Part shown: positions 23,216 to 60,060 of the stretch, one piece after another | How the letters are laid out: each line of letters starts with the position of its first letter | Numbering within the stretch: position 1 is the first letter of the stretch | From: Patescibacteria group bacterium | Lineage (GTDB): Bacteria > Patescibacteriota > Patescibacteriia > JAHIZJ01 | Direction: 5' to 3' | Length of the DNA: 64,000 nt | Assembly: GCA_041650335.1 (NCBI GenBank) | Contig: JBAZLK010000004.1 | Span: forward strand, 15,990-79,989 | Program-made: the position numbers and the translations under genes | Notes under the pieces: model-generated | Databases searched by the model: none | What the model was told of the DNA's origin: nothing | The model's input: only the letters and a program-made list of their open reading frames with translations

Positions 23216-23219
23216 GCTC

Positions 23220-41794: not shown

Positions 41795-43141
41795 ATGAGA
41801 GGAACCTGGGTATTTGTAGCTGCCTTTCTCATGCTTGCTGGAGTCTGCTGCGCGCCGACATCGCCGCCGCTGACTTCTCAGCAGCCCGCGACCGTGTCGA
41901 CCCAGTCAGTTACTCCTCTCAAGCTGGACTTTGGTTCGGTTTCACCAGGTTGCTCGAACTCGTTGAGCCTCAGGGTGAACAACCTGACGGCCAACCCGAT
42001 CGAGAGCTCGGTGAAGTCGTCGAACAAACACTTCTCGGTCAATCCGTCGGTTATCACTCTCCAGCCGTTCGAGTCTCGGCTGCTCACCGTTACGTACTCG
42101 CCTCTGAAGCACGGTCGGCACAAGTGCACGATCAGCTTCGGGGCGAGGAACCTGAAGACGGTGAAATGCCAAGGCCGCGGCGGCGAGAACAAACCGACCC
42201 GCGACAAGTACTACTGGCCGTTTTCGATCAGCAGCATCTGGAACACGCCGATCGGATCCGAGGCGCACTATGTCTCGGCCGGCCTGCGGCCCAGTCTCTG
42301 GATCGCGCCCGACAAGGAGTATCTGTACTTCGAAGGACGCGAGCGACTGCTCTACGGAAACGGGAAGTGGCCAGGAGAATGCAGCGGCAGCAACGAACTG
42401 GCCAAGATCATCGTGCCGGACGGTGCCTTGATCCCCGCGAACGACGGCAACACGACCTCGGCCTTTGTCTTGGCTGACGGAAACACCGTCTACCAGGCAA
42501 ATCCGACCGCCCGCTGTGATCCCACCGGCCCCGCCTATGCCGGCTGGAAAGCGCCCACCGTCAACTTGTATGGAGATGGGATCGGCGGCGGTCATGGCGG
42601 ATCGAGCCTGGCTACGCTCGGTGGTTCTATCCGCCTGGGCGAGCTATTTAGCCTCGCCCCGATTCGGCACGCGCTGAAGATCGACATCTGGATGGCCCGG
42701 CACGGATCGAAAACCCAGTCAGGCTTCCGCTGGCCGGCCGCGCGCGCCGATCATTACTACCTGCGGGAGTACGACAAGGAGGGCGTCGCCAAGCCGGCCG
42801 TACGCATGGGTTGTCTACTCGCCATTCCGTCCAACATGAACCTCGATTCGCTGGGGCTGAAAACCGACCCGGCAATGAAGATCGCCCAAGCGTTACGCGA
42901 TTACGGGGCCTACGTCGTCGACGACTCATACTGGGATGCCGTCAACCTGTGCGTTGAGAGCGGTGTCCCGGCCGAATTCGCGACTCGCTGCGGCTACGAC
43001 TTCAGCCAACAGTCCGGTGACTGGTACGACGACATGATGAAGCTCTTCCAGCTCCTTTGCGTCGTCGACAACAACACTCCGACAACCGTCGGTGGCGGCG
43101 GACTGCCGCTCGTACCGCCAGCACCGCCGATCGGCAACTGA
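41795..43141 (+). CDS. High-G+C secreted hypothetical protein (signal peptide + Ig-like N-domain + unknown C-domain)
   Basis: start refined to ATG 41795 (MRGTWVFVAAFLMLAGVCC signal/lipoprotein-like peptide) because the longer ORF-track start would overlap the upstream GT4 gene and the AT-rich promoter TTGACA(41725)-N16-TATATT; markedly higher G+C than flanks; spurious overlapping ORFs in all frames. Confidence 0.5.
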   Translation: MRGTWVFVAAFLMLAGVCCAPTSPPLTSQQPATVSTQSVTPLKLDFGSVSPGCSNSLSLRVNNLTANPIESSVKSSNKHFSVNPSVITLQPFESRLLTVTYSPLKHGRHKCTISFGARNLKTVKCQGRGGENKPTRDKYYWPFSISSIWNTPIGSEAHYVSAGLRPSLWIAPDKEYLYFEGRERLLYGNGKWPGECSGSNELAKIIVPDGALIPANDGNTTSAFVLADGNTVYQANPTARCDPTGPAYAGWKAPTVNLYGDGIGGGHGGSSLATLGGSIRLGELFSLAPIRHALKIDIWMARHGSKTQSGFRWPAARADHYYLREYDKEGVAKPAVRMGCLLAIPSNMNLDSLGLKTDPAMKIAQALRDYGAYVVDDSYWDAVNLCVESGVPAEFATRCGYDFSQQSGDWYDDMMKLFQLLCVVDNNTPTTVGGGGLPLVPPAPPIGN

Positions 43142-44011: not shown

Positions 44012-45211
44012 ATGCGCTTGGCATTTATCACGAACAGCCTTCCCTATCCGCCCGAAAAGGACGGGCAAGCCTTAATCGCCTATCATTTATTGACGCGCCT
44101 GTCTCAACGGCACCAGATCCGATTGCTTTGTTTTGGCGACAAACACGATCTCCCGAATATCAAGCGTTTTACCGACCTCGGCATCAGTGTGAAGCTTTTT
44201 GACCGCCCGAAGCGCCTGCTTCCCTTCTACTATCTCTCGCCGAAGTCGCGTTCAATGGCCTGGTTCCAATACCAGCTGTACACGCCCGAAATGATCTGGG
44301 AAATCGAAACGCTCGACGGTCGCCCCGATGTCGATCTCGTCTATTTCCACTCCCCGTTCATTTCGGCCTACCTGAAACATATCTCACACACACCCGTTGT
44401 TTTTGGTTATATTGACGCGTATTCCTCGTGGTATGAACAATTCCGGGCCATCACGAAAAATCCGTTAAAAAAAATCCATTATCGCTTCGAGCGTGAAAAA
44501 GCTATCGCTCTTGAGCAACACGTCCTGCCGACATTGTCGGAAACTATTGTTGTCTCAGCTGTTGACCGCAAAACCATCCAGCAGCTCGCCCCGACGGCCA
44601 ACGTATCCGTTATTGCCAACGGCGTGGATCTAAAATTCTTCCGTCCCTCGGAATCACAACCTGATAACGAAACGATTGTCTTCACCGGGACCATGAATTT
44701 TCCGCCGAACGTCCGGGCCGTCCTCGATTTCAATAAGAATGTCTGGCCGTTGCTCAAGCAAGCGCACCCGCGAGTCCAATGGTATATCGTCGGAAAGAAT
44801 CCGACCCTCGATATTTTCGAGCTTCAGTCGCTCGATCCACAAATCACCGTTACCGATTATGTAAAGGACATCCGCTGTTATTTATGGCGCTCGGCTGTGT
44901 ATGTCTCGGCCATAACGCTTGGTGCCGGCTTTAAAAACAAAATTGTCGAGGCGATGGCCTGCGGCAAGGCGATCGTCGCCACGCCAACCAGCATCGCTGG
45001 ATTACCGATCTCTGACGGCGAGAATATCTTCGTGGCAAATTCTTCCCATGAAATGTATGAAAAAATACACCGGCTCTTTGAGTCGTCCGATCTACGTCAG
45101 AAGGTTGAACGCCAAGCCCGGATCTTTGCCGAGCAGTATGATTGGAACATAGCTATTCAAAAATACGAATCAATTTTTATTAAACATGCCCGTCCCAATG
45201 CAGAGGTATAG
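44012..45211 (+). CDS. Glycosyltransferase family 4
   Basis: GT-B pattern, C-terminal VYVSAITLGAGFKNKIVEAMACGKAIVAT motif; 399 aa. Confidence 0.7.
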   Translation: MRLAFITNSLPYPPEKDGQALIAYHLLTRLSQRHQIRLLCFGDKHDLPNIKRFTDLGISVKLFDRPKRLLPFYYLSPKSRSMAWFQYQLYTPEMIWEIETLDGRPDVDLVYFHSPFISAYLKHISHTPVVFGYIDAYSSWYEQFRAITKNPLKKIHYRFEREKAIALEQHVLPTLSETIVVSAVDRKTIQQLAPTANVSVIANGVDLKFFRPSESQPDNETIVFTGTMNFPPNVRAVLDFNKNVWPLLKQAHPRVQWYIVGKNPTLDIFELQSLDPQITVTDYVKDIRCYLWRSAVYVSAITLGAGFKNKIVEAMACGKAIVATPTSIAGLPISDGENIFVANSSHEMYEKIHRLFESSDLRQKVERQARIFAEQYDWNIAIQKYESIFIKHARPNAEV

Positions 45212-46583
45212 CTTTCAACGAATCGGACAAACTCTTTTTCTGACGGTGTTGATCGCGGCGCCGCTCTTATATGCCATTACGCGGCATCCGACCTACGAAA
45301 ATATCTTACAAATTTTGATTTTAACGGTATTATTACCGATATTTTTAATTGACTATGAGCTGGGCTTTCTTGCTCTCATCGTCCTTCGCCCAGCCATGGA
45401 CACATTCAGCCAGATTGATTTTCTCAACGTCGGACAATTTTCCCTGAATCTGTCATCCGTGGTCGGTTTGCTGGTCATCGCCTGGATACTATTTTACCTT
45501 ATTCGCCGTCAAGAACGCGTTTGGAAACAGCCGTTGTTTTGGCCCTTTTTTGTCTTTGTCATTATCAGCGTCATCTCATTATTCTACACCCCGTCACTCT
45601 CCGCCACGATCCGGGAAGTCGTCAGGATCGCCAGCATATTCTTTATCTATTTAATGGCTGGCGCCATGGTCGTCAATAGAAAAGGCGCCGCTCGCTTTCT
45701 GAAGGCCATCGCGCTTTCTAGCATCATACCCATAACGGTTGCTTTGTATCAATTTTTCACGCAAACGGGATTGAGCTTTGCCGGATTGAATAACCGCGTC
45801 TACGGCACGCTGGTTCATCCCAATGCCTTTGCTACCTATTTACTCATTATTTTCATTCTCGGATTCGGTTATTTTTTATCCCATCGTCAAGAGGGAATAA
45901 AAAAACACGGTTGGCTCATCATCGGCCTACTTCTTACAATCGGTCTACTGATCTTGACTTATACGCGCGGCGCCTGGATTTGTTTCGGAATTATTGTTTT
46001 CATCATGGGCCTGAAATACTATAAGAAAGTGTTGGTGGCGCTTTTTGGCCTGGCTGTGTTCCTGTTGCTTTTTGGTCCAACGCTTAACCGTTTCATCTTT
46101 ACGAATTTTGACTATGATTTTTCCCGCAATCCTGTCATCCAGCGTCTGACGGAAAAGAATTCCGACGCCGAAAGCTCGATCGATTGGCGCTTCAAGGTCT
46201 GGACGGAAATGAGCCGTAAAATCGCCGACCGGCCGTATCTGGGTTATGGCTTTGGCGCGTTTCCGGTGATCCGCCAGCAATTCGTGAAGGGTATGTACGA
46301 GAGCACCGAGGCTCATAACGACTATCTCCGCCTGGTGATCGAGCTTGGCCTGGTGGGCATACTGGCGTACTTGGTAATTTTAGGTAAGCTTGTTTACAAT
46401 ATTTTCCAACATTTACGAGCCAAGCTTCCAGCGACGGATAAAGCCTGGCTGTATTCCGGCTTATCGCTGATCGCGGCCGTTCTGGTGATGAGCATTTCGG
46501 ACAATGTTCTGCAGGGAACGGCGAATATGTGGCTTTTCTGGGCGGGCATGGCCGTATTGCAAAAACTTCCGACATTAAAGTAG
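45186..46583 (+). CDS. O-antigen ligase / Wzy-like polymerase family polytopic membrane protein
   Basis: ~10-12 TM helices, periplasmic loop with YTRGAW...H motif region typical of Wzy_C/O-antigen ligase family. Confidence 0.6.
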   Translation: MPVPMQRYSFQRIGQTLFLTVLIAAPLLYAITRHPTYENILQILILTVLLPIFLIDYELGFLALIVLRPAMDTFSQIDFLNVGQFSLNLSSVVGLLVIAWILFYLIRRQERVWKQPLFWPFFVFVIISVISLFYTPSLSATIREVVRIASIFFIYLMAGAMVVNRKGAARFLKAIALSSIIPITVALYQFFTQTGLSFAGLNNRVYGTLVHPNAFATYLLIIFILGFGYFLSHRQEGIKKHGWLIIGLLLTIGLLILTYTRGAWICFGIIVFIMGLKYYKKVLVALFGLAVFLLLFGPTLNRFIFTNFDYDFSRNPVIQRLTEKNSDAESSIDWRFKVWTEMSRKIADRPYLGYGFGAFPVIRQQFVKGMYESTEAHNDYLRLVIELGLVGILAYLVILGKLVYNIFQHLRAKLPATDKAWLYSGLSLIAAVLVMSISDNVLQGTANMWLFWAGMAVLQKLPTLK

Positions 46584-46606
46584 TCTTCTTTTTACGCACT
46601 AAACGG

Positions 46607-46635
46607 TTGCCCGAACATTTGGGCAATATTTTATT
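46607..46635 (+). terminator. Intrinsic terminator after O-antigen-ligase-like gene (TTGCCC-gaacattt-GGGCAA + T-rich tail)
   Basis: 6-bp stem, 8-nt loop, followed by TATTTTATT. Confidence 0.45.
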
Positions 46636-46646
46636 ACAAAGAAAAA

Positions 46647-46683
46647 GAGCCCGTTCGTCTCGAGATGAGACTACTAGGGCTCT
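46647..46683 (-). terminator. GC-rich intrinsic terminator of the high-GC minus-strand operon
   Basis: AGAGCCC...GGGCTCT 7-bp outer stem with inner GTCTC/GAGAC stem; on minus strand followed by CUCUUUUUCUUU. Confidence 0.5.
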
Positions 46684-46714
46684 AAAGAGCTGCCGCTTGG
46701 TAGCGGCCTACTGA

Positions 46715-47275
46715 CTACTGCTTCCCGACCCAGGTCCAGGTGCCGTCGGCGTTCCAGATGGGCCGATACCCGCCGAACTGCTGGCCCTTGTCGTTCTTGG
46801 CCCGACTCGGGTGGTTCCAGGTCCACGGCCAGGCCGTGACGCCGTCGGCCGAGGGTCGGCACCAGAGGTAGCACCCCTCGTCCTGGCACTTGCATTCCTT
46901 CAGCGGGATGACGAACTCGACCGCCTGGCTGCCATTGCCCACGTTCGCCACCGTGGGATCGGTTTCGACGCAGAGCAGGCCGCTCAGTCCGACCGTGTAG
47001 GGGCCGGGAACGGGGGTCTGGCCCGACCATTCGATGGCCTTCGGAAAGCTGACGAAGATGCGGATGTGCCACCCGTCAGCAGCCAGATACGAGTCGATCG
47101 GGTTCTTGTCCGACAGGGTCGGACGCGCCGGAGCCGCGGGAGCCGGGGTGACCGCCGCCTTCGCGCTGTCAGCCGGCGGCGGAGCCACCTGGCTGTCCTT
47201 GATCTCGGCCAGCGCGGGCTGGACGAGCGCGAACGTGACAACCGCGACCATGAGCACGAGCATGAGCTTCTTCAT
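46715..47275 (-). CDS. High-G+C secreted hypothetical protein, Cys-containing (186 aa)
   Basis: start refined to ATG at 47275 (MKKLMLVLMVAVVTFALVQPALA signal peptide) with SD GGAGGAATGGAGAA upstream; Ala/Pro-rich linker then domain with CxC...C...C (KECKCQDEGCYLWC). Confidence 0.45.
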   Translation of the reverse strand: MKKLMLVLMVAVVTFALVQPALAEIKDSQVAPPPADSAKAAVTPAPAAPARPTLSDKNPIDSYLAADGWHIRIFVSFPKAIEWSGQTPVPGPYTVGLSGLLCVETDPTVANVGNGSQAVEFVIPLKECKCQDEGCYLWCRPSADGVTAWPWTWNHPSRAKNDKGQQFGGYRPIWNADGTWTWVGKQ

Positions 47276-47333
47276 TTCTCCATTCCTCCGTGGGTTTGAG
47301 TTTCCGAACTTGCTACTAGGTCGTGGCGGGAAC

Positions 47334-48221
47334 TCAGGGGTTCCCGCCGATGTGGATGCCGTAGAGCCGTTCATCTCCGTCCCTGGGGTTCTTGAACTCC
47401 CCGGAGCCGGTGATCGCGTACTCGAAGGCACAGTACCCATTACCCAGATCGTGGATACACTTCAGGAGCGTCGCCTGTTCGAAGTTGTCTTCCGGACCGA
47501 AGTAGACGCCGGCCCGGAGTTCTTCGCCGGTGAGCTTCTGAAGCCTCAGGTAGCCCTTGGACGCCTTCTTGACCATCACCTTCTCGTTCTCGGTGGTCCA
47601 TCGCCCGCTGACGAACTCCATTGCGTGAGCACGATCGCGGAAGCCGGTCCATGTCCCCAGCCATTCGACCGGCTGGGTAGGATCGGCGGGCCAGTTTCGC
47701 CCGTCCGGCAGTCCGGTACCGGTGTACCAGATCTGCGCCGAAATCAGGGAATCAGGTCCGTCTGGGGACACCGCGATCGCCCCGTTCTCGAGGTAGACCG
47801 AGAAGGAACGACAGGTCTCCCACTCATTGGAGCCCGCCGATCCCTGAATCCGAGTGCCGCCGACCGAGATGTCGACCATCCGGTAGTAGCGGCTGTCGGC
47901 CGGATTCTTGGCCCAGAACCAGACTGGGATGCCCTTCTCGTTGCCCCACGACCACCAGAGGTAGTCCCCCTCGACGTGGCCGTCGGCATAGGTGGCAAAC
48001 GGCATCCTGATGTTCCGATCCTGTTCGTATCCAGGCACGACCGGACCGCTGATATACACCGGCCAGCCGTCCTCGGCCACCGCGCACGTCGCGGAAAAGC
48101 CGAGCGTCATCTGTTCCTGCTCGGACAGCCCGGGCGCGGTCATCGTCCACTCGTCACGGCTGCAGCCCAGGGGCATGATCGCCACCAGGACCAGCAGTGC
48201 CACCAACACATACCTGCGCAT
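47334..48221 (-). CDS. High-G+C hypothetical lipoprotein/secreted protein (295 aa)
   Basis: start refined to ATG 48221 (MRRYVLVALLVLVAIMPLGC - signal peptide ending in Cys) with SD GGAGGAAACCGAAG upstream; Trp/Gly-rich beta-type sequence. Confidence 0.45.
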   Translation of the reverse strand: MRRYVLVALLVLVAIMPLGCSRDEWTMTAPGLSEQEQMTLGFSATCAVAEDGWPVYISGPVVPGYEQDRNIRMPFATYADGHVEGDYLWWSWGNEKGIPVWFWAKNPADSRYYRMVDISVGGTRIQGSAGSNEWETCRSFSVYLENGAIAVSPDGPDSLISAQIWYTGTGLPDGRNWPADPTQPVEWLGTWTGFRDRAHAMEFVSGRWTTENEKVMVKKASKGYLRLQKLTGEELRAGVYFGPEDNFEQATLLKCIHDLGNGYCAFEYAITGSGEFKNPRDGDERLYGIHIGGNP

Positions 48222-48244
48222 CTTCGGTTTCCTCCTTCTTCCTT

Positions 48245-50068
48245 CTACCAGCTGTGGTCGAGGCTGATCCCCGCCCACTGCCGGTCCGTGTGGTACACCT
48301 TGCCGTTGACCAGATCCCGGTCGACGGCATCATTCAGGTACTTGAAGTTCCCCTTCAGACGCCACCACCGGTTGATCCGATACTCAATTCCGATCCCGGG
48401 GCCACGCCAGTCGAATGACCAGCTCGGGTTGTCGTACGACCAGGAGTCGTACGAGGCGTAGACGATGATGTAGTGGTTGAACTTGTACCCGATCCGTCCC
48501 TCGAACACCTGCATGGTGTCGGCCGGGAAGGACAGGGTCTGGTTGTCGAAGTGCCGTGACTGTCCGCGGCGGTACTGGACGTCGTACGACGCCCGGAAAT
48601 ACAACGGGTGCGGTTCAATCGAGAAGCTCCCCCCGATCTCGCGATCAAGGTTTGTTCCGCGCTTGAACATCGCCTCGTAGTACCCCAGCTTCGGGGTAAT
48701 GCCGAGCACTCTCGCGTATCCTCCGTAACCATCGAAGTACCGTGCGTCCTCGCGCGCCTTGATGGTCGTGGGCGAAATCTGCCGGTAGTTGATGAACTCG
48801 CGCTGGCCGGCCAGATACCAGGCGCCGGCTTCAAAGCCCGTACGCCAGGCACCCGCCTCGTCGCCGAGGATCCACCCCCGGCCGCCGAGCCGGTAATCGC
48901 CGGACACGTGATTCTTGTCCAGCGACGCCTGCTCGATTCGGATGACAGTCGAGAGATCGCGTAGGCGACCCCAGCCGTCGTAGCCGGAAATCCGTGGCAG
49001 CCACTCCAGTCCTCCCAGGAACGAATGCTGTCGGTCAAGGTTACCCTTCCGGTCTTTCCCGCCCTGGGAATACCGGTAGTCGAGCCACCAGACGCCGCCC
49101 GAGACGAACTCGTGAGACACCTCAGGCTCTTGGGCGTAGAACGGCCCTTCCACCTTGGGCTGTCGAGCCGACTCAGGCGGCGACACCGTCACCTGGCTTT
49201 CGGCTTCGTCCACGAACGCTCGCCTGACATAGGCGGCGTTGCCGCAGACGACGAACCGATACAGGTGGTACCGGTAACCCTCGTAGTCCACAAAGGGATA
49301 TTCGAGGGCAACGGTCCGGTCGACCGACTGTCGCGACTTCGGGTCTTTCCAGAAGCAGGCCGTCCTGCCCCAGGAAATGTTCTTGCCAAAACACAGGCCG
49401 TCGACGATGAGCGGTGACGCCTCAGTTGAGTACATCCAGACACTGTCCGGCGTACTCGCTTCAACGAGGCTCACCCACTCCGCCCGAACCTGGTCCGGTA
49501 CCTTGAAGGACTTGATCTGGTCCTTGAGCGGCGTCCGAGCCGGATCACCGCCGAGGAATTCCCAGCGACGGATGACCTGTTCGGGCTTCTGCGTGAAGAG
49601 ATGCTCGCCCGGCAGGACATACCGTCGATCAAGACCATTCCAGGCTCGAAGAGTATCAGCCGGAACGCCCAGCTCCTTCGAGAGGGCTTTCCAGCCTTCA
49701 CCCGGCTTTACGACTCTGGTGGGTGGCAACCGGATGGGTTCCGGCTGCTTTTCCGAGCGTTTCAGTTCGAGCTTGGTATCCTGGACGGCGACCCAGTTGG
49801 TTGAGTCGCAGTAGGCCAAGACCCGGTACTTCACCCAGAAGGCGTCCTTCCCCGTCTGTTCGACGCAGAAGTCCGTGGCCTTGGGCACCTGTATCCTGAC
49901 CACGCGGTCGTTCACCAGAACGCCCACGTCAACCGTGTTCCTGCCATTCGGCAAGCTCACGGCCTTCAGGTTGATAACGGTGCCCACCGGGGGCTGCGTG
50001 CACTGAGCCAGTGCATTGGTCGAGAAGACCAGCGCGCAGACGAACAACAGAACCGTGAACTGCTTCAT
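48245..50068 (-). CDS. High-G+C secreted protein with LysM-like domain and C-terminal beta-barrel-like region (outer-membrane-protein-like)
   Basis: signal peptide MKQFTVLLFVCALVFSTNALA; LysM-like segment VKPGEGWKALSKELGVPADTLRAWNGLDRRYVLPGEHLF; C-terminal ~300 aa with alternating hydrophobic/aromatic pattern rich in Y/W/G/R ending in ...ISLDHSW (terminal aromatic); SD GGAGGATTCGGTC before ATG. Confidence 0.5.
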   Translation of the reverse strand: MKQFTVLLFVCALVFSTNALAQCTQPPVGTVINLKAVSLPNGRNTVDVGVLVNDRVVRIQVPKATDFCVEQTGKDAFWVKYRVLAYCDSTNWVAVQDTKLELKRSEKQPEPIRLPPTRVVKPGEGWKALSKELGVPADTLRAWNGLDRRYVLPGEHLFTQKPEQVIRRWEFLGGDPARTPLKDQIKSFKVPDQVRAEWVSLVEASTPDSVWMYSTEASPLIVDGLCFGKNISWGRTACFWKDPKSRQSVDRTVALEYPFVDYEGYRYHLYRFVVCGNAAYVRRAFVDEAESQVTVSPPESARQPKVEGPFYAQEPEVSHEFVSGGVWWLDYRYSQGGKDRKGNLDRQHSFLGGLEWLPRISGYDGWGRLRDLSTVIRIEQASLDKNHVSGDYRLGGRGWILGDEAGAWRTGFEAGAWYLAGQREFINYRQISPTTIKAREDARYFDGYGGYARVLGITPKLGYYEAMFKRGTNLDREIGGSFSIEPHPLYFRASYDVQYRRGQSRHFDNQTLSFPADTMQVFEGRIGYKFNHYIIVYASYDSWSYDNPSWSFDWRGPGIGIEYRINRWWRLKGNFKYLNDAVDRDLVNGKVYHTDRQWAGISLDHSW

Positions 50069-50278
50069 GACCGAATCCTCCCCTTTTCAAACCGTGTGAC
50101 TGTCTATGCCGTTTGGTTAGCCGTCTATCTGTAGAACCAGTGACTTGGATCCGTAGATGAAATGTCAATTTGCATCAGTGAGCTTGCGTTGTCGCTTCCT
50201 ACCGCGTGCAAGAGAGCTCACACGTCCAGTACGATTCGCATCGTCCTAAACGTGGCAAGACCTCTTGCGAGGTTTGCC

Positions 50279-51193
50279 TTATTCGAAATTTTGAAATTCC
50301 TCTTCCGGGCCATTCCAAAGCGGTCGGTTCGGGATCGTTTCCGGCGTATCCTTCAGATGGTCGTAGATCGTTCGAATTTTCGTATTGCCTGTATCTTTAT
50401 TCGGTGCAATCGGCTTGCCTTGCCGAACGGTTTCTGGAGTAATTTCGTTTATCGGTTCGAGCGGTTGTGCTTTTGGTATGTATTCTTGAAACATAAAATT
50501 GTTTTCGGCCGGCAACGGCTGTTCAAACGGCTGCTCAGGTACCGCTTCAGCAGGTGCCCTGTCGGCAGTCAACGGCACCGTTTCTTGATTTTTTGATCGC
50601 ATGGCGAGCAGTACCGAGTAGCCGATTGAGCCGCCCAAGCCGAGTAAGATACCGGCGGCCAGATTCAAGGCGATGTTCGGCCGGACCGGCTGATTGCTCG
50701 TGGTCGGATAATCAACGATTTTCAAGACGATTGAATTTCCGCCACCGAGATACTCCGTGCCATTCTCAGACAAGACCATGGCGATGGCATTGGACAGGCT
50801 TTCTGCTTGAGAACGGTTTTGATTATATACCGCCATCTTTATTACTCCGATATCCGGTGAAACGCGAGTTTCAATCTGTCGTTTCCATTGCTCGCGACGC
50901 TTAATTTCGTCTGACGGAAATTTTATATCGGAACTCAGGTAGCCTGAATTCACAACCTTATCGTAGAACGAGGTTGTGTAAATCATTTGGCCAAGCGAAA
51001 CGCTCAGACGTTCGGCTGATTTGGCCGCAGAATAGGCGTCGAGATTCGGATCCTTTTCAATGACAAGCAATGAAAAAGAAGACCGGTATTCGAACGGCTG
51101 TACAAACGTGAATATTACGGCCAAGGCCAGCGTCGTAACCGATACCAGCGTTATCATTAGCCAATTTTGCTTGATCTTCGCTAAATAGTTCAT
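50279..51193 (-). CDS. Wzz-like polysaccharide chain-length determinant / PCP family protein
   Basis: N-terminal TM (LMITLVSVTTLALAVIF), extracytoplasmic domain, second TM (LNLAAGILLGLGGSIGYSVLL), Pro/Glu-rich C-terminal tail. Confidence 0.45.
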   Translation of the reverse strand: MNYLAKIKQNWLMITLVSVTTLALAVIFTFVQPFEYRSSFSLLVIEKDPNLDAYSAAKSAERLSVSLGQMIYTTSFYDKVVNSGYLSSDIKFPSDEIKRREQWKRQIETRVSPDIGVIKMAVYNQNRSQAESLSNAIAMVLSENGTEYLGGGNSIVLKIVDYPTTSNQPVRPNIALNLAAGILLGLGGSIGYSVLLAMRSKNQETVPLTADRAPAEAVPEQPFEQPLPAENNFMFQEYIPKAQPLEPINEITPETVRQGKPIAPNKDTGNTKIRTIYDHLKDTPETIPNRPLWNGPEEEFQNFE

Positions 51194-52540: not shown

Positions 52541-54034
52541 TTATCGAATGGAAAATATTTTTATCTTACGCAGAGCCTGGATGGCCAGCTGGAGGCGCTC
52601 CGTGCTTTGCGCGTAAATCGTGTATGTCGGATCGCCTTTTTTGATTTTGTTCCCGATGCGCTGATGCAAATGCAAACCGGCAAGTTTTTCCTCAGGGGCA
52701 CCAAGAAAGCGCGCAACATCATCAATCACCGCGTCGTCGATATCTTCCAGCGTTCCGCTCCGGTTGGCATAATATCTCTTTTTATACGCGCCGAGGGTGA
52801 CACGGTCGGCTTTGATATTTGGGTTGCCGCCTTGAAGGGCGATGATTTTCTGCATCTTCTTCCAGGCGCGGCCAGAATCTAAAATTTGATAGGCGACCTC
52901 ACGGCCCTTCCCTTTCCGGCACTGACCGCACAGTTCCAGGAGTTCGCCGGCTAACGCAATCGACTTCCGTTCCAGGTCACGCGGCCGCAAGGGATGCCGT
53001 TGCAAAACGCGCAGGACATCGCGCGCTTCCAGGGCCGGACCGACGCCGCGGCCGACCGGTTCGCGCGCCTCACGCATTTGAACTTTTATTTTCATGCCGA
53101 ACCGTTTTCCAAGATAGAGGAATTTCCGCTCGACCTCCCAGGCCAGCTTAACATTCGGGATCTTCGTCGTCGGCCCAACCGGCATATCGATAATCAAATA
53201 CTTGATCCCCATGGCGACTTTCTTGGCCATGATGCTGACAATCATCTTGTTGTAGGGCTCGATACCGAGCGGATGCGAAGCCCGGATAATCCGGTCGTCC
53301 GCCGGCGCGACGTTCAACTCGCCACCCCAAACCAAGCAGCAATTATTCTTCTTCACAAAGTTCGTTATTCGCCGAACCGTATGCTCAACAGGCGCCAGGA
53401 CTTCCATCGTATCGGCTGTGCCGGCGGCTGAGGTGACCGCACGCGACGATGTTTTTGGTATGACCAGGCCGGTCGAGGCGACAATCGGCACGACGATCAT
53501 TGAGGTGCGGTTGCCCGCTAATCCGCCGACGGAATGTTTATCTACTACCTTGCCCCGAAAATTCAAGCGTTCACCCGTTTCAGCCATAGCCTTTGTAAGG
53601 TAATACAGTTCCTCGTCTGAATAGTGGCGGGCAAAACTGCTGGCGATAAAATAGCTGATTTCGCTTTGCCCGAGCCGGCGATCAACAATGTCTTTTATAA
53701 TCGAGTATATTTCTTTGTATGACAGCCTTTTCCCGAGCAGCTTTTTAATAATGGCCTGGATCGAGGCGGGCCGCGCCAGCACCTTTACCTGGACGATTTC
53801 ACGCTGGCGCAATGGGTATTCCTCCCAGATCTCGCGAAACAACCCGATTTCCCCCGGCCGCACTTTTGAGTTCGTAAAGTCGGCTTCGGCAATGACCCGA
53901 CGCTTGCCCCAGCGTATCTCTAAATCATCGCCTGGTTGAACGCCAAAATTTCGCGCTTCTGATTCGCGCAACACCGCGACAAGCGCTCCCTCTGCTTTAA
54001 AGTCAAGTTTCTTGCTTTTTAAGAAAAATGGCAT
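52541..54034 (-). CDS. AMP phosphorylase (thymidine phosphorylase family, archaeal-type)
   Basis: 497 aa with N-terminal extension relative to thymidine phosphorylase; DKHSVGGLAGNRTS phosphate-binding motif; immediately downstream of RuBisCO and R15P isomerase genes. Confidence 0.8.
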   Translation of the reverse strand: MPFFLKSKKLDFKAEGALVAVLRESEARNFGVQPGDDLEIRWGKRRVIAEADFTNSKVRPGEIGLFREIWEEYPLRQREIVQVKVLARPASIQAIIKKLLGKRLSYKEIYSIIKDIVDRRLGQSEISYFIASSFARHYSDEELYYLTKAMAETGERLNFRGKVVDKHSVGGLAGNRTSMIVVPIVASTGLVIPKTSSRAVTSAAGTADTMEVLAPVEHTVRRITNFVKKNNCCLVWGGELNVAPADDRIIRASHPLGIEPYNKMIVSIMAKKVAMGIKYLIIDMPVGPTTKIPNVKLAWEVERKFLYLGKRFGMKIKVQMREAREPVGRGVGPALEARDVLRVLQRHPLRPRDLERKSIALAGELLELCGQCRKGKGREVAYQILDSGRAWKKMQKIIALQGGNPNIKADRVTLGAYKKRYYANRSGTLEDIDDAVIDDVARFLGAPEEKLAGLHLHQRIGNKIKKGDPTYTIYAQSTERLQLAIQALRKIKIFSIR

Positions 54035-54042
54035 CGGTTATA

Positions 54043-55284
54043 TTATCTCCAATAATGTAATGCGGTCTGTAATTCTGGATGCGTTTTCGCGTAATCCGAC
54101 AATCGTTGATGCGACGTGACGGCCTCAACGGCCTGTTTCGCCGCCCGAGCGCCAGCCAATGTCCCGCCGGGGTGGCCGTGAATGCCGCCGCCAAAGTTAA
54201 TGATCACGTCCGGTCCAATAATTTTGAGCAATTTCGGCACCAGCCGAGGATGGAGTCCGCCGGAAGCGATCGGCATGACCGGTTTTATATTTCCCCAGGG
54301 TGACTTCAAAAAGGTATTGATAGCGACTGTCTCCCGCGCCGAACCTTCCATTTTTCCAACGACTGTGCCGCTATGGAGTTGATCAACGCCAGCCAAACGG
54401 GCGAGTTTTGCGATCACGAGCATGGAAATACCGTGCTTCGGATCGCGGGTCATGACCGAATGCATGGCTCGATGAGCATGGATGATCAGTCCGGTCTTCG
54501 CCTGCCGGACCGCCTGAACACCGGCGAAACCCGCTGTCATAATATCTATCATCGCGCAGTTGCCGCCAGATTGCTTAATGAAACGCGCCCGTCGGATCAT
54601 TTCGCTGGCCGGAGCAGTAATATTAAACACACACATTTTTCGCTCACCGGTTTTCTTTTCAATTTCCTTTGCTAATCGTAGTGTTTCGCGAACCCTTTTT
54701 TGAAACGGATTAAATCGTTGATCGGTTAAATTCTCGTCGTCCTTCACGAGATCGGCCCCGCCCAGAAAACAGTCAGCGGCAAATTTCGCATGTTCGCGCC
54801 ACGACAAACCCATTTTCGGTTTCATGATCGCGCCGATGAGCGGCCGTCTTGGTACACCGAGCAGGCGCCGAATGCCAACGATACCGTGCGCCGGTCCCAG
54901 GAACGAATGAAGGAACGCCGCCGGCATTTTTAAGTCCTCAAGACGAAGCTTGGTAATGAGTTTCATCGAAAATACGTTCCCAGCGACACTCGATAAGAGT
55001 TGCGGGATATTACCAGGCTCGAAGAGTTCGAGCGGATAGGCGATCCGGACAAGCTTGTCGTTCGGCGATACGGAAATAACTTTTGCTGAGAGTCGACGAA
55101 ACATTGCCGCCTTCATCGTCTTGGTTGTCGTCCACGTGCCGACTGACGATTCGGCGGCCACGATTTGGGCACTGTCTCGCAATGGAACGGGTGATTCAAT
55201 TCGAAATGTGACGATAATATGAGTCGCCGTGTTTATGCGTTTTCCGAGGGCGAGATAATTTTGTTTGAGGTAACCGCTCTTCAT
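54043..55284 (-). CDS. rbcL: Ribulose-1,5-bisphosphate carboxylase/oxygenase large subunit, form III-like
   Basis: 413 aa; GTWTT, KPKMGLS, GGADLVKDDEN (carbamylated Lys region), RAMH, SGGLHP...FGGGIHGHP motifs; no small subunit gene; AMP-pathway neighbours. Confidence 0.9.
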   Translation of the reverse strand: MKSGYLKQNYLALGKRINTATHIIVTFRIESPVPLRDSAQIVAAESSVGTWTTTKTMKAAMFRRLSAKVISVSPNDKLVRIAYPLELFEPGNIPQLLSSVAGNVFSMKLITKLRLEDLKMPAAFLHSFLGPAHGIVGIRRLLGVPRRPLIGAIMKPKMGLSWREHAKFAADCFLGGADLVKDDENLTDQRFNPFQKRVRETLRLAKEIEKKTGERKMCVFNITAPASEMIRRARFIKQSGGNCAMIDIMTAGFAGVQAVRQAKTGLIIHAHRAMHSVMTRDPKHGISMLVIAKLARLAGVDQLHSGTVVGKMEGSARETVAINTFLKSPWGNIKPVMPIASGGLHPRLVPKLLKIIGPDVIINFGGGIHGHPGGTLAGARAAKQAVEAVTSHQRLSDYAKTHPELQTALHYWR

Positions 55285-56195
55285 TTCAGTAACCAGGGGT
55301 AATGCTTATTTACATACGCCCGCACCCGGCTCGGCTCAATCAAGCCGAATTCAGTAACAAGTCGGGTAATATTCTTCGCTGGTACGCGGTCAAATGCGAA
55401 ATTAATGATATTGACACCGACCGGCGCATCGGCCCAGACTTCTTTTGCCGACCGACGCTCAATAGGGGTGGCGGCCGATCGGCTGTATTTTAATAAACTG
55501 CAAACGATATAGACCGGGACCCCTTGTTCGGACGCCGCCAGTGTCAGGCCATAACTCCCAATTTTGTTTATTATTGATCCATCGGCGGAAATGACGTCAG
55601 CGCCGATGACAACCGAATCCATCATGAGCTCTTTGCCGGAAGCCTCGCTGACCAAAAACGGACCGGCACCGTCGACGACAATCGTAACCGGTATTCTTTT
55701 TGCCTGTAACTTCTTCGCAGTAATATGCCCCTGATACAGCGGCCGTGTTTCGGACGCGAAGACGTGAAATTTCTTTTTTTCGTGCGTTTTAACGAGAAGC
55801 TGTTCGACGGTTGACGAATGACAATGGGTGTAGACTTTGTCACCTGTTTGAATGAGGGCCCGGCCAAGGAGACTGATGCGTTCTTGGGTTTGCACCAGCA
55901 AGAGAAGGAATTCAGCGGTTGATCTTTTGAGAATGAATTTTGTCGGTTGGCGCCGGACGCGGTCCCAAACGAACCGCAGGCCGTTCTGAGCCAGTGGTTC
56001 GGTCGGCCGGTTGTTCCGCCAGAGATAGTTCCGAGCGGCCTTCATTTGAGACAGCCAGTTCGTGGTCCGTCTCAGTTGCAACCGAACGCCAAAGTCGCAA
56101 TAGGCGTTGAGCGTTGCCCGGGCAACCTCGGTGGCGCCTTGATATTTGAACGTTTGGATATCTCGCAAAACTCGATCAAGCTGTCCGTATGACAT
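55281..56195 (-). CDS. Ribose-1,5-bisphosphate isomerase (eIF-2B alpha/beta/delta-like, e2b2 family)
   Basis: 304 aa; eIF2B-like fold signature (VYTHCHSSTV, VIGADVISADGSIINKIGS); 4-nt overlap with rbcL. Confidence 0.75.
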   Translation of the reverse strand: MSYGQLDRVLRDIQTFKYQGATEVARATLNAYCDFGVRLQLRRTTNWLSQMKAARNYLWRNNRPTEPLAQNGLRFVWDRVRRQPTKFILKRSTAEFLLLLVQTQERISLLGRALIQTGDKVYTHCHSSTVEQLLVKTHEKKKFHVFASETRPLYQGHITAKKLQAKRIPVTIVVDGAGPFLVSEASGKELMMDSVVIGADVISADGSIINKIGSYGLTLAASEQGVPVYIVCSLLKYSRSAATPIERRSAKEVWADAPVGVNIINFAFDRVPAKNITRLVTEFGLIEPSRVRAYVNKHYPWLLK

Positions 56196-56222: not shown

Positions 56223-56588
56223 TTAGCCGAGCAGATTCTTAATCTTTTCGCACAGGTCGGCGAGTTTAAGGTTTGCCTTGACGAAATAATCCTGGGCGCC
56301 AAGCGCCTTTGCTTTCGTCACCTCGTTTGCCTCGCCAAAATTCGAAAGCATAATAACGGGAATATCCTTCGTGGCTGGGGCGCTCTTTAATTCCCGGATC
56401 ACTGAAAAACCGTCTTTTTTCGGCATCCGAATATCAAGCAGGATGAGTTCGGGCTTAAACGGCCCAACCTTTGCTAAAGCTTGGACGCCGTCCATCGCCG
56501 TTTCAACGGTATGTTTCGTTTTCCGAAGCTTATTTGTTAAGGCTTCAGATAAAAATATCTCGTCCTCAACCACGAGTATTTTCGCCAT
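56223..56588 (-). CDS. Single-domain response regulator (CheY-like receiver)
   Basis: 121 aa; acidic pocket DE...D (VVEDE, LLDIRMP), conserved K (KPF... S/T) pattern. Confidence 0.8.
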   Translation of the reverse strand: MAKILVVEDEIFLSEALTNKLRKTKHTVETAMDGVQALAKVGPFKPELILLDIRMPKKDGFSVIRELKSAPATKDIPVIMLSNFGEANEVTKAKALGAQDYFVKANLKLADLCEKIKNLLG

Positions 56589-56592
56589 CGTT

Positions 56593-56973
56593 TTAGCGTT
56601 TAGCGTATTCGTGAATCTTGTTCTTCAGTTCGTCCAGATTGGTGCGGGTTTTCACGAGATATTCAGCCGCGCCTAGATCCATGGCTTTTTTTTGGTAGCT
56701 TGTGTCGTCAAGATTCGTTAAGACGATCGCCGGGATACTCTTTAGCTCGCTGTTTTCTTTCAACCGTCGCAAAAACTCAAAACCGCTTACCCTCGGCATC
56801 AAGAGATCAACGAGAATAACATCCGGCTTCGCTGAGGCCGCCATGGCCAAACCCGCCTCACCTTCTCGAGCGACGTGAATGCTAAAGTTGTTCTTTTCTA
56901 GTTTCGTTTGCAGCGCTTTGCTGATAATCTCCTCATCCTCGACCACCAGTACGGTAATGGGTTGAGTAGACAT
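56593..56973 (-). CDS. Single-domain response regulator (CheY-like receiver)
   Basis: 126 aa; VVEDEE, ILVDLLMP phospho-acceptor Asp context. Confidence 0.8.
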   Translation of the reverse strand: MSTQPITVLVVEDEEIISKALQTKLEKNNFSIHVAREGEAGLAMAASAKPDVILVDLLMPRVSGFEFLRRLKENSELKSIPAIVLTNLDDTSYQKKAMDLGAAEYLVKTRTNLDELKNKIHEYAKR

Positions 56974-56980
56974 AGTATTG

Positions 56981-59413
56981 TTAGATTAATGTTTTTTCGC
57001 CTTCGCGTCGCTTACTGCCGGCCAAGGGGAGCGTAAAGAAAAAGCTTGTCCCCTGCCCTTCGACAGATGTAAACCAGATTTTGCCGCCAGACGCGTCAAC
57101 GACTGATTTCGCCACATAGAGGCCAAGTCCCGTGCCTTCCGTTTGGAGCGTGATCACATTGTCGGCCCGGAAAAACTTCTTAAATACTTTTGACTGCTGG
57201 GCTTTTGGTATACCGACGCCGGAATCAAATATTTCAAATTGGAGATACTTACCGGCTTTCGTGATCCGCACGCCGGTCGTACCGCCTTCCGGCGTATATT
57301 TTACGGCATTAGAAAGGAGGTTTTGAAAGACCTGACGAATAAGCTTTGAGTCGATTTTAATCTTCGGCGTGCCGCCCGGCAGTGTCTTGAAAACCGTTTT
57401 GATATTCTTCTGTTTGATGAGCGGAGTCAATTCGAAGAGAACGCTTTTGACCATGCCGTCCATATCGCTGCTGACCGGCTCGATGGCGATCGTGCCGGAC
57501 TCGATCCGAGAAACATTGAGCAGGTCATTGACCAACGCGATCATCCGCTCGTTCGATTTATAGGTATGGTCAAGATACTCGTGCTGCTCGTCGTTGAGCT
57601 TGCCGGCGTCGCCATCGAGCAACATCTCCAAAAACCACTTTGAGGCCGATAACGGCGTCCGTAATTGGTGCGAGGCGACGGAGACAAATTCTGACTTCAT
57701 TTTATCAATTTCCTGTTCTTTTGTCACATCCCGGAGCACGACAACGCCTCCTTTAATGACGCCGTGCGCGTCGATCAGCGGCGCGGCCGTAATGGTGACC
57801 GGAATTTCTTTCTTTGCTTTGTTTATGATGGCGTAGTCACCGGTTCCCGTCACGATGATCTGGCCGGTTTTAATCGACTCCATGATCGGCGAATATTCTT
57901 TATTGGCATCGATGAGTTTCAGACTCTTTAAGACAATAATATTATCAAGCTGCGAACCGATGACCTCGGTATTTGCATAGCCGAGCAGTTCACTGGCCGC
58001 TTCGTTGCAGGCGATAAAGGAGAGATTTTCGTCCAATGCCAAGACGCCATCGCCGACATTCGCCAAAATTGATTCCGATTTATTTTTTTCCCGTTCAATC
58101 GAATGTTGGGCGCGTTCAAGATCTTTCACTTTTTGGCGCAACTCCTGCGTCCGCTTCGCCACCAGATCCTCCAGTTTCGTGTAATATTCCAAGAGCTTAT
58201 CTTTCATGATAATAAAGCTGTGGGTAAGATCGCCGATTTCATCGTCCCGTTCGGGCGCCTTGATGTCGATATCCAGGTTGCCACGGCTGATCCGATAGGC
58301 ATTCGCAGCCAGCTTCTTTAATGAATTTACAATCTGCCGCGTGATGATGCTCGTGACAATAAAAACGATGATCAAGGCTATTCCGCCAACAATAATATAC
58401 CGCCACTGGAGTCCCGAAATATTTTTTTGTATTTCTGATTCAACGATGCCCCGGGCAATGCTTCCAACAACCTCATTGTTGCTGTCGCGTAAAGGAATAT
58501 ACGACATTAAATACCAATCGTTCACCTCAAATGCCCGGCCTGAAAAATTATTTTGCGAGACGTAAACGGTATTGACGACGTCTTCCGAGGCGAGAGTGCC
58601 TTCGGCCGATTCGTTCCGGTCGCGATACGTTTGGGTAGTCGCAACCCGGGCGTCGTATAAATAGATGGTGGCGATGCCGCCGCTTTTTTGGGTAACGTCC
58701 TCGAGAAGCGTTACGTCATTGTTCATAAGGATGCCGCTGACGACCGCGCCAATCACCGCGTTGTCTTTCTTTATCACCGATACCGCCGTCATGAATAACC
58801 CGTCCGTTTCCGCCTTTTTATCACGCCAGCCGGTTTTCTGAAGTTCAGTCGTCCGACGAGTTACCTTCGCTTGTTCTAATAATTCTGGGCTCAGAACAGC
58901 CAGTTCGGCGCTGGGAATGACTTCAATTGATTTAACCGGGAGACCGCTCTTTATAACACCATCTACGAATCCCCTGATCGATAATTTTTTCCCTGTTTGG
59001 GCGTTCGTGCTTGCAGCCAGTATTTGCGCTTTGGTATTGACGATGGCGATGAAACTTGCGTCTCGCGCGCTCTGTTCATCGATAAGCGCTTCCTTCAGCG
59101 ACGCATACTCCGCCAGGTTACCGATGGTTGCCAGGTCAGGCTGATTGCTTAATGTTTGACTTCCATTTTTGATGGCTGTTCGCTGGGCAAAAGAATCAGT
59201 ATCAAAATAGAGTCTCTCAAGGCTATTATTAAAAATAAGGGACAATGCTTCCCCCTGCTGATTGACCCGCAGTTGTATTTCTTTTTTTAAACTCGCCGAG
59301 GTGTTTGATAGTGAAACGTAAATCAATGCTCCAAGCATAATAGTCGCTAACAGCGACACTTGGAATATCACCCGACGCGTTAAACTACTGCTAAACGGTT
59401 TCCACATATTCAT
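56981..59413 (-). CDS. Sensor histidine kinase (TM - Cache-like - TM - HAMP - PAS - HisKA - HATPase_c)
   Basis: 810 aa; two TM segments flanking ~280-aa periplasmic domain; H-box SHQLRTPL; N, G1 (DSGVGIP), G2 (GTGLGL) boxes. Confidence 0.85.
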   Translation of the reverse strand: MNMWKPFSSSLTRRVIFQVSLLATIMLGALIYVSLSNTSASLKKEIQLRVNQQGEALSLIFNNSLERLYFDTDSFAQRTAIKNGSQTLSNQPDLATIGNLAEYASLKEALIDEQSARDASFIAIVNTKAQILAASTNAQTGKKLSIRGFVDGVIKSGLPVKSIEVIPSAELAVLSPELLEQAKVTRRTTELQKTGWRDKKAETDGLFMTAVSVIKKDNAVIGAVVSGILMNNDVTLLEDVTQKSGGIATIYLYDARVATTQTYRDRNESAEGTLASEDVVNTVYVSQNNFSGRAFEVNDWYLMSYIPLRDSNNEVVGSIARGIVESEIQKNISGLQWRYIIVGGIALIIVFIVTSIITRQIVNSLKKLAANAYRISRGNLDIDIKAPERDDEIGDLTHSFIIMKDKLLEYYTKLEDLVAKRTQELRQKVKDLERAQHSIEREKNKSESILANVGDGVLALDENLSFIACNEAASELLGYANTEVIGSQLDNIIVLKSLKLIDANKEYSPIMESIKTGQIIVTGTGDYAIINKAKKEIPVTITAAPLIDAHGVIKGGVVVLRDVTKEQEIDKMKSEFVSVASHQLRTPLSASKWFLEMLLDGDAGKLNDEQHEYLDHTYKSNERMIALVNDLLNVSRIESGTIAIEPVSSDMDGMVKSVLFELTPLIKQKNIKTVFKTLPGGTPKIKIDSKLIRQVFQNLLSNAVKYTPEGGTTGVRITKAGKYLQFEIFDSGVGIPKAQQSKVFKKFFRADNVITLQTEGTGLGLYVAKSVVDASGGKIWFTSVEGQGTSFFFTLPLAGSKRREGEKTLI

Positions 59414-59709
59414 TAGGCATGAATGCCAAACCGCATGATGATCTTTTCATACCAGCGCTGCTGTTTCGACAGATTATCTTCCGAATGTAGCGTTGGCATA
59501 ATAAAAACCCACTCAGCTCGCTGGGCGGGATTACATACTCTAAACCGTTGTGAATTTCTTTTTATATTTATTTTCATATTATAATTATAGCATATCTACT
59601 GATTTTTGTCTAGCAAAAATTCGATATTCACATATTCCTGTATCTAGCCAAAAAATAATAAACCCTGTAGGATACCGATGGAGTACGACTTGCCCAAGAG
59701 GAGGTGTCC

Positions 59710-60060
59710 ATGAAACGTCTTGTCGGTCACGCGATCGCGTTCTGGACCTGTAACGCCATCGCTCTGATACTCGCTGTTTTGACTCTCTGGCACTTCATTT
59801 ACCGCTCTGACACATCCCCCACGCCCTGGCTTCTGCTGTTCGGCTGGATGGCGTTCACGGTCGTGGCAACGTTTGTTCTGCAGGAAACAGCGCAATCAAT
59901 GATCATGGGGCTTTCGTCCTCCCTCGGGTCACAGACCTTTGCGCCGCTGCTCATCTGCCTCCTCGTGCTCTTTCTCCCTGGCCTGGTCTTCTTCGGCCTG
60001 TACCATTGGGCGCGGCACGCCTACCAACAACGCACCCTGGAACATCACTCTCACGGGTAA
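59710..60060 (+). CDS. Small hypothetical membrane protein (3 TM)
   Basis: start set to ATG 59710, 7 nt after AGGAGG (59697-59702); three hydrophobic helices. Confidence 0.4.
   Translation: MKRLVGHAIAFWTCNAIALILAVLTLWHFIYRSDTSPTPWLLLFGWMAFTVVATFVLQETAQSMIMGLSSSLGSQTFAPLLICLLVLFLPGLVFFGLYHWARHAYQQRTLEHHSHG

Follow-up and report, generated by a model that had tools for sequence, protein, structure and literature searches.

We examined a 64,000-nucleotide stretch of contig JBAZLK010000004.1, referred to here as the window, from a genome labeled Patescibacteria group bacterium. Between a gene for a Wzz-type polysaccharide co-polymerase (PCP) and a convergent gene of the Wzy_C family lies a cassette of three genes on the minus strand. 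The first of these encodes a 607-amino-acid protein (48245 to 50068) in which a predicted wall-binding N-terminal half is joined to a predicted β-barrel of the outer membrane protein (OMP) type. The first-pass annotation of this DNA had reported a 607-residue product ending in ISLDHSW. The open reading frame (ORF), its ATG start, and its minus-strand orientation were all verified, and the C-terminal end reads AGISLDHSW. A strong ribosome binding site (RBS), GGGGAGGA, sits a few bases 5′ of the ATG. The annotation deposited at NCBI for the same gene (P0001, WC497_03810) starts 78 codons downstream and gives a product of 529 amino acids, so that the signal peptide and the greater part of the N-terminal domain are missing. 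This deposited model appears to be truncated, since the start of the 607-residue form is preceded by a strong RBS and recurs in the homologues P0002 and P0003.

The C-terminal part of the protein (residues 321 to 607; 48248 to 49108, minus strand) was predicted to fold as an OMP-type β-barrel of about 14 to 16 strands with short loops and a terminal Trp. An HMMER profile search against 1.84 billion representative sequences yielded only about 25 proteins related in the middle and barrel domains. AlphaFold2 (AF2) modeling of residues 316 to 607 with an alignment of these ~25 relatives gave a mean predicted local distance difference test score (pLDDT) of 91.5 and a predicted template modeling score of 0.84, with all five models above 90. 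The models consist of long antiparallel strands joined by short connections and close into an OMP-type barrel, not a soluble β-sandwich. The strand number is given as a range because DSSP assigned 16 strand segments, compared with 14 strands in the best structural matches. Fold-search values were highest for the COG4313 channel (15.5), PcoB (15.4), Omp33 (15.0), and FapF (14.9), followed by NanC/KdgM and autotransporter β-domains (about 14.5), OmpG (13.8), PorV (13.7), intimin (12.7), and OmpM1 (10.6). Foldseek, an independent method, agreed, with matches to FadL (2.7e-9) and OmpG (TM score, approximately 0.55 to 0.58). Moreover, the last residue is Phe, Trp, or Tyr in 19 of 26 family members, usually within the ending G-hydrophobic-x-[YH]-x-[FW]. 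An aromatic last residue in such an ending is a hallmark of the C-terminal insertion signal of OMPs. Together, the models, the fold matches, and the conserved ending bear out the earlier proposal, and the last 290 residues are predicted to be an outer membrane-type β-barrel with an aromatic end.

An alternating hydrophobic/polar pattern rich in Tyr, Trp, and Gly had also been described for this product, and the description held in part. The barrel domain is indeed rich in the three residues (Gly, 12.3%; Tyr, 7.5%; Trp, 4.8%) and the alternation is present, but it is only moderate. The family-averaged hydrophobic fractions of the strand faces were 0.55 versus 0.32, a difference weaker than in textbook OMPs; strands S3, S8, S9, and S10 showed it cleanly, other strands only weakly. 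The domain is in addition rich in Arg and Asp, and its strands are joined by short loops on either side, whereas typical OMPs have long external ones. In Pfam profile searches, OMP_b-brl (PF13505) reached 17.5 bits, below its cutoff of 28.7, and no OMP family rose above its cutoff across the 25 members, among which OMP_b-brl, LptD, OmpA_membrane, and Porin_4 gave sporadic subthreshold matches. These properties would fit a soluble or wall-embedded β structure, for instance a glycan- or lipid-binding barrel, that the models have mapped onto OMP geometry. We consider such a structure highly improbable.

The N-terminal half comprises four further segments behind an apparent export signal. By inspection, residues 1 to 22 (50003 to 50068, minus strand), MKQFTVLLFVCALVFSTNALA, cleaved before QC, look like a Sec signal peptide with a predicted A-L-A cleavage site, through which the 607-residue protein would be exported; equivalent N termini are found in most family members. 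An N-terminal β domain follows (residues 23 to 105; 49754 to 50002, minus strand), for which AF2 predicted β strands at a pLDDT of 63 to 79. This domain is confined to the closer subfamily and is 98% identical to its counterpart in P0002.

The first-pass annotation had further noted a LysM-like peptidoglycan-binding segment, and this observation was substantiated. Pfam, the family profile, and AF2 all place a LysM domain at residues 117 to 160 (49589 to 49720, minus strand). With the single sequence, the Pfam LysM profile (PF01476) matched residues 119 to 157 with an E value of 1e-3 and 19.4 bits, compared with a gathering cutoff of 20.9. Across the family, LysM was matched in 13 of 25 members (best E value, 3.9e-10), and the family profile matched solved LysM domains (LytE, 3.4e-11) as well as thousands of multi-LysM proteins. 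AF2 returned the β-α-α-β fold of LysM (strands 117 to 119 and 156 to 158, helices 126 to 133 and 137 to 144) at a pLDDT of about 80. Profile matches and model thus concur on a predicted LysM peptidoglycan-binding domain.

The middle domain (residues 161 to 292; 49193 to 49588, minus strand) defines the family. Its motifs read W..GGDPAG...FGG...C.W.D...C.NGA, and two Cys residues are conserved; the domain was found only in this family and had no Pfam or PDB match. Between it and the barrel lies a Pro-rich spacer (residues 293 to 320; 49109 to 49192, minus strand), the length of which varies in the family up to about 30 Pro/Ala-rich residues. In some members, such as P0010 and P0011, the protein apparently begins with an alternative N-terminal membrane anchor followed by a Pro-rich stretch. 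An AF2 model of the entire protein, built from four sequences, was of low quality (pLDDT, 51.6).

The barrel gene is followed on the same strand by two genes for predicted exported proteins. The second gene of the cassette (47334 to 48221, minus strand) starts 23 nucleotides past the barrel stop codon with the RBS GGAGG and encodes a predicted lipoprotein of 295 amino acids; the product starts MRRYVLVALLVLVAIMPLGC, which is lipoprotein-like, and the predicted signal segment MRRYVLVALLVLVAIMPLG directly precedes a Cys. The third gene (46715 to 47275, minus strand) encodes a predicted secreted protein of 186 amino acids. Its N terminus, MKKLMLVLMVAVVTFALVQPALA, which ends in QPALA before Glu, corresponds to a Sec signal peptide and is followed by an Ala/Pro-rich stretch and a Cys/Trp-rich C-terminal part. 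Neither the 295-residue nor the 186-residue protein had a match in Pfam (E ≤ 1) or PHROG or an informative match in NCBIfam or the PDB. The spacers within the cassette measure 23 and 58 nucleotides, both with RBSs. A terminator-like double hairpin followed by TTTTTC lies 3′ of the third gene (46645 to 46715, minus strand; ΔG, −31.8 kcal/mol; z, −4.3). Because this stable double hairpin with its T-run closes the third gene, we read the barrel, lipoprotein, and small secreted-protein genes as one predicted operon with the barrel gene first.

Upstream of the barrel gene, the PCP (304 amino acids; 50279 to 51193, minus strand) matched Pfam Wzz with 27.1 bits, above the cutoff, and is directly adjacent. 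The intergenic region between them (50069 to 50278, minus strand), which we read by eye, contains a hairpin past the Wzz stop codon and the RBS of the barrel gene. The promoter of the cassette is presumed to be located here; a consensus promoter scan found no consensus σ70 site on the cassette coding strand of this region. At the other end, convergent with the cassette, lies a gene for a membrane protein of the Wzy_C family (45198 to 46583, plus strand; Pfam Wzy_C, 6.7e-22), a family that comprises O-antigen polymerases, ligases, and O-oligosaccharyltransferases; a terminator for this gene is predicted at 46606 to 46627 (plus strand). Glycosyltransferase genes surround the whole block from Wzz to Wzy_C in the window. 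The three-gene module and its protein family are uncharacterized and are named in none of Pfam, NCBIfam, and PHROGs.

The earlier reading had taken the host for a member of the Candidate Phyla Radiation (CPR), pointing to an AMP-salvage RuBisCO operon and to the lack of lpx, bam, and lpt genes, and our analysis supports this assignment. The AMP-salvage set is present and comprises genes for an IF-2B-family isomerase, the RuBisCO large subunit, and a protein resembling AMP phosphorylase. Among the precomputed Pfam assignments, which cover 1 to 60 kb of the window, no lpx, bam, lpt, tol, or lol families were found, and peptidoglycan and rod-shape genes (MreBC, PBP2, Alr, and Ddl) were present. 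Every named match among the 120 listed for the seryl-tRNA synthetase (SerRS) of the window was from Patescibacteria, Candidatus Sungbacteria (several), Yanofskybacteria, or Parcubacteria, and no proteobacterial names occurred among these 120. Furthermore, the identical protein is annotated in an NCBI metagenome-assembled genome labeled Patescibacteria group bacterium, and the genomes of homologues P0003 and P0008 carry the same label. Judged from these sequences, the host is a CPR/Patescibacteria bacterium, Sungbacteria-like. As the first-pass annotation had stressed, an OMP-type barrel is unexpected in such a host; the literature treats CPR bacteria as monoderm.

That annotation had offered two ways around this conflict, contamination of the assembly and acquisition from a diderm donor. 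We therefore set out below how the locus is distributed. Three contigs, from ENA (368 kb), Logan (10 kb), and NCBI (134 kb), carry an identical protein with identical neighbors. Since the same gene and the same junctions recur in these three independent assemblies, contamination or a chimera was rejected as unlikely. Loci were examined for nine lineages, the window included, out of about 25 representatives. The barrels of the relatives examined were 82, 57, 44, 29, about 27 (two), about 24, and about 23% identical to that of the window, and host GC among these loci ranged from 0.30 to 0.62. The barrel gene directly followed Wzz in all nine loci, with Wzz itself 38 to 57% identical even in distant ones. 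In each of the eight loci with downstream sequence, the barrel gene was followed by a gene of about 300 codons, a small gene, and a convergent Wzy_C gene; a lipobox-type Cys was present in the ~300-residue product in all eight loci read. The 295-residue lipoprotein was 27% identical (E = 2e-13) to its counterpart in the distant locus L017, and the 186-residue protein keeps its place across related loci with poor sequence conservation. In six loci, the downstream sequence also encodes additional glycosyltransferases together with a CLIPPER-like protein and a conserved GHL15/FG-GAP protein. The GHL15 and FG-GAP protein is 45 to 49% identical across distant loci, and it and the CLIPPER-like protein are probably further parts of the same surface-glycan system. 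In the window, the GHL15 and FG-GAP protein has 685 amino acids (38386 to 40443, minus strand) and adjoins the CLIPPER-like protein (36929 to 38383, minus strand); both also occur in L016, L017, and L018.

Since the barrel gene keeps its place after Wzz at barrel identities down to about 24%, a recent transfer of the cassette is unlikely. The identity of the cassette declines along with the identities of the flanking genes and SerRS, if somewhat faster, and none of the nine family loci examined had a recognizable diderm context. A phage, plasmid, or mobile origin is likewise unsupported, as there was no PHROG match and tblastn searches of phage and plasmid collections returned no relatives. 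Two wider surveys added no further lineages: a word-indexed homology search with the 25-sequence alignment found only four close relatives, all known already, and a GTDB scan with a narrower alignment found only three known lineages. From the distribution of the locus, the cassette arrangement is best read as vertically inherited in CPR-type genomes; a very ancient transfer into the ancestor of the clade may have preceded this. One GTDB record, CAYJKP010000001.1 (L011; 668 kb), carries the locus with a barrel 81% identical to that of the window and is titled uncultured Gammaproteobacteria bacterium. We rejected this title as a mislabel, given that the named SerRS relatives among the 120 matches listed for the window are all CPR.

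The base composition of the cassette could nevertheless be taken as a sign of foreign DNA. A high-GC block at about 46,700 to 50,100 (GC, 0.60 to 0.66, compared with about 0.47 around it) has sharp edges that coincide exactly with the three genes. GC at third codon positions (GC3) was 0.80 in the cassette versus mostly 0.45 to 0.60 in the other genes of the window. C- and G-ending codons were both enriched, with AAG at 92% versus 39%, CAG at 98% versus 49%, and TTC at 86% versus 31%, a usage like that of a high-GC genome. To these points can be added the Gammaproteobacteria title just mentioned, which the SerRS relatives contradict. However, among the homologous genes in L003, L007, L010, and L016 to L020, the offset is found in every mid-GC and AT-rich lineage and scales with the host. 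In a GC-rich host, cassette GC3 was 0.81 versus 0.75 to 0.80 in the flanks, so that the offset is gone; in an AT-rich host it was 0.30 versus 0.16 to 0.22, so that the offset stays. The cassette thus does not look like a relic of foreign DNA, because its GC3 follows the composition of each host plus an offset. Recent transfer from a high-GC diderm was rejected on the basis of this scaling together with the synteny in nine lineages, and the shared junctions and the lack of phage or plasmid homologues speak against foreign or misassembled DNA as well. We hold an origin of the block by recent acquisition, contamination, or misassembly to be largely refuted and extremely unlikely. The cassette instead appears to follow host composition with an added upward push, and the bias appears to be actively maintained. 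Candidate causes are very high expression and biased gene conversion at a recombining surface locus. The next-highest GC3 of the window, 0.71, was that of a gene for an ASH/HYDIN-type Ig-domain surface protein (41795 to 43141, plus strand), and GC3 was also above background in an ORF of 116 amino acids (0.72; 59704 to 60060, plus strand) and in the LexA gene (0.68; 60693 to 61349, plus strand).

Comparison with the sister locus L003 revealed a second peculiarity of the barrel gene. Along the gene, DNA identity fell from 96% to 60 to 68% within a tract of 565 bp (49109 to 49673, minus strand) and returned to 92%; the flanks were 92 to 97% identical, and the edges of the tract are sharp. At the protein level, identity between the window and its closest sister was 98% in the N-terminal domain, 89% in LysM, 51% in the middle domain, 39% in the Pro-rich spacer, and 94% in the barrel. 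The middle domain diverges between these sisters as much as it does in far more distant lineages. The small secreted-protein gene is a second soft spot, at 70 to 79% identity to the sister. The hypervariable tract carries what we take as the signature of module replacement or diversifying selection. Because of this signature, the middle domain probably contacts something that differs between strains.

A similar pattern was seen outside the cassette. The RuBisCO and IF-2B-family isomerase genes (about 54000 to 55500) were only 74 to 82% identical to L003 at the DNA level, and the adjoining AMP phosphorylase, Wzz, and Wzy genes were 90 to 97% identical, which suggests that the RuBisCO genes, too, have recombined or diverged as a mosaic. 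Directly upstream of the operon for isomerase, RuBisCO, and AMP phosphorylase, we found a Cache/HAMP/PAS histidine kinase and two single-domain response regulators (56223 to 59413, minus strand). The same arrangement of histidine kinase and AMP-salvage genes is present in L003 and L007, and the sensor system appears to be conserved alongside the operon. Elsewhere in the window, an AmmeMemoRadiSam-type set (20771 to 24526, plus strand) consists of radical SAM, LigB/Memo, and AMMECR1 genes, with an unannotated 473-residue protein with a signal peptide-like N terminus between the first two.

The gene order invites comparison with known routes of polymer export. The composite OPX/β-barrel translocons of Myxococcus xanthus, EpsX-EpsY and WzpX-WzaX, belong to Wzx/Wzy pathways (PMC9601211, PMC9603273). 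As in those systems, the barrel gene here lies in a Wzy cluster beside a PCP of the Wzz/Wzc type and a periplasmic or lipoprotein partner. In the OPX/β-barrel translocons, the barrel and its partner are proposed to form the distal exit of the polymer, which makes them the nearest functional precedent. The differences are nonetheless considerable. The known translocons are found in diderms and pair an 18-stranded, PgaA/AlgE-like barrel with a partner that carries Poly_export (PF02563) and SLBB domains. The present host, by comparison, belongs to the CPR; the barrel seems closest to the 14-stranded FadL and OmpG, no OPX domain is recognizable in the lipoprotein, and a LysM and a novel middle domain are present. 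The present system is not a member of the composite OPX/β-barrel translocon family.

According to the model we propose, the protein is a peptidoglycan-anchored barrel of an outer layer that works with Wzy-type glycan machinery. The N-terminal half would be held at the cell wall through LysM or, in some members, through an N-terminal membrane anchor; the alternative anchors of P0010 and P0011 fit an N terminus that holds on to the cell body. The Pro-rich spacer would extend outward from the wall, and the barrel would be seated in a hydrophobic outer layer belonging to the envelope of the cell itself. In this layer, the barrel, the lipoprotein, and Wzz may form the distal exit of the glycan made by Wzy, or its anchoring point. 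Contact with a strain-variable glycan or another variable partner would fall to the variable middle domain, and the bias toward G- and C-ending codons may reflect very high expression. Several results weigh against this model. Neither BamA nor Omp85 nor other outer membrane biogenesis genes were recorded in the window or in about nine related 20-kb loci, and the monoderm status that the literature assigns to CPR bacteria sits poorly with an outer layer that would house the barrel. The precomputed Pfam annotation of the window lists no Wzx flippase family, and the lipoprotein has no Poly_export/SLBB (OPX) or other recognizable domain. The moderate alternation of the strands described above counts against it as well. 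With these points included, we give the model a chance not far short of even. A more specific version goes beyond it, in which the clade is not plainly monoderm and has kept or reinvented an outer hydrophobic layer, either a lipid membrane or a toga-like β-barrel sheath, with the barrel embedded in it, tethered through LysM, and serving as the exit or anchor of the Wzy glycan. This version is possible and, in our estimate, rather doubtful.

The domain architecture also recalls proteins that attach an outer layer to the wall. As in OmpM, SlpA, and OmpA-type tethers, one polypeptide combines a peptidoglycan-binding domain with an outer membrane barrel, and as in OmpM the binding domain is N-terminal and the barrel C-terminal. 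OmpM is a tether typical of the Terrabacteria, a clade that includes CPR, and OmpM porins and SLH domains are reported to have been lost in the monoderm clade of Chloroflexi, CPR, and Dormibacteraeota (10.1101/2021.05.31.446380). The means of attachment differ: an SLH domain with a coiled-coil stalk in OmpM and an OmpA_C domain in OmpA, compared with LysM and a Pro-rich spacer here. No SLH Pfam match was obtained in the protein or in its family members, and the spacer is Pro-rich, not helical. For an outer layer made mainly of β-barrels, Thermotoga provides a precedent within the Terrabacteria: its toga is a β-barrel sheath with little lipid, held to peptidoglycan by dedicated tethers (PMC10160955). 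Thermotogae encode BamA, and their barrels and tethers (Ompα with SLH) are separate proteins.

These likenesses raise the main rival to our model, namely, that the barrel protein is a structural tether or sheath. It would then be a principal component of a proteinaceous outer layer resembling an S-layer or the Thermotoga toga, and would be pinned to the wall by LysM and glycosylated by the neighboring Wzy_C and glycosyltransferase proteins. The lack of an SLH domain and of a coiled-coil stalk argues against this role, and the adjacency to Wzz in nine of nine loci favors control of polymer chain length or export. We judge it to be unlikely, and it is compatible with a role of the protein in translocation.

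Likeness to the FadL/TodX family was confined to structure. Sequence identity to FadL/TodX and OmpG was 8 to 10%, the protein had no Toluene_X (PF03349) match, and both the domains and the gene context differ from theirs. In FadL, an N-terminal hatch plugs the barrel, whereas here the Pro-rich spacer precedes it. In intimin and invasin (type Ve secretion), the passenger is C-terminal to the barrel; here the barrel runs to W607. Nor does the protein match a classical type Va autotransporter (PF03797), which is characterized by a 12-stranded C-terminal barrel with an α-helical linker in its pore and by a profile match.

The protein could, on the other hand, be meant for another cell. CPR bacteria are generally regarded as obligate epibionts (PMC12102498). 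An epibiont could secrete the protein as a pore or adhesin, the barrel of which would enter the outer membrane of a diderm host, with LysM and the middle domain gripping the host wall. A hypervariable middle domain would suit an arms race with a partner, and the BAM (β-barrel assembly machinery)-type C-terminal signal would be recognized in a diderm periplasm. Conversely, an effector would hardly be expected to keep a fixed slot flanked by Wzz and Wzy within a glycan cluster that serves the cell itself. Moreover, no delivery system is encoded nearby, and there is no known route for a monomeric OMP-type barrel into the outer membrane of another cell. We therefore regard a host-directed role as highly improbable and retain the model of a peptidoglycan-anchored barrel in the envelope of the producing cell.

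Reconstructions of envelope evolution count CPR bacteria as monoderm and OMP-type barrels as markers of an outer membrane. The present family joins the two: a predicted barrel with a BAM-style C terminus that is conserved, vertically inherited, wall-binding, and fixed in the surface-glycan locus of a CPR clade. The fold and the domains are known; what is new is the architecture, the unexpected lineage, and the conserved context. One of three consequences would follow, which are an overlooked outer layer, OMP barrels that work without a classical outer membrane, or barrels planted in hosts. The family provides a concrete marker to be sought in imaging, metaproteomes, and whole genomes of CPR bacteria. 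If these cells do possess an outer layer of their own, the family would represent a remnant of the diderm envelope within CPR, or a parallel to it, with its own insertion route if BamA is truly absent, and would bear on how diderm and monoderm envelopes relate to each other.

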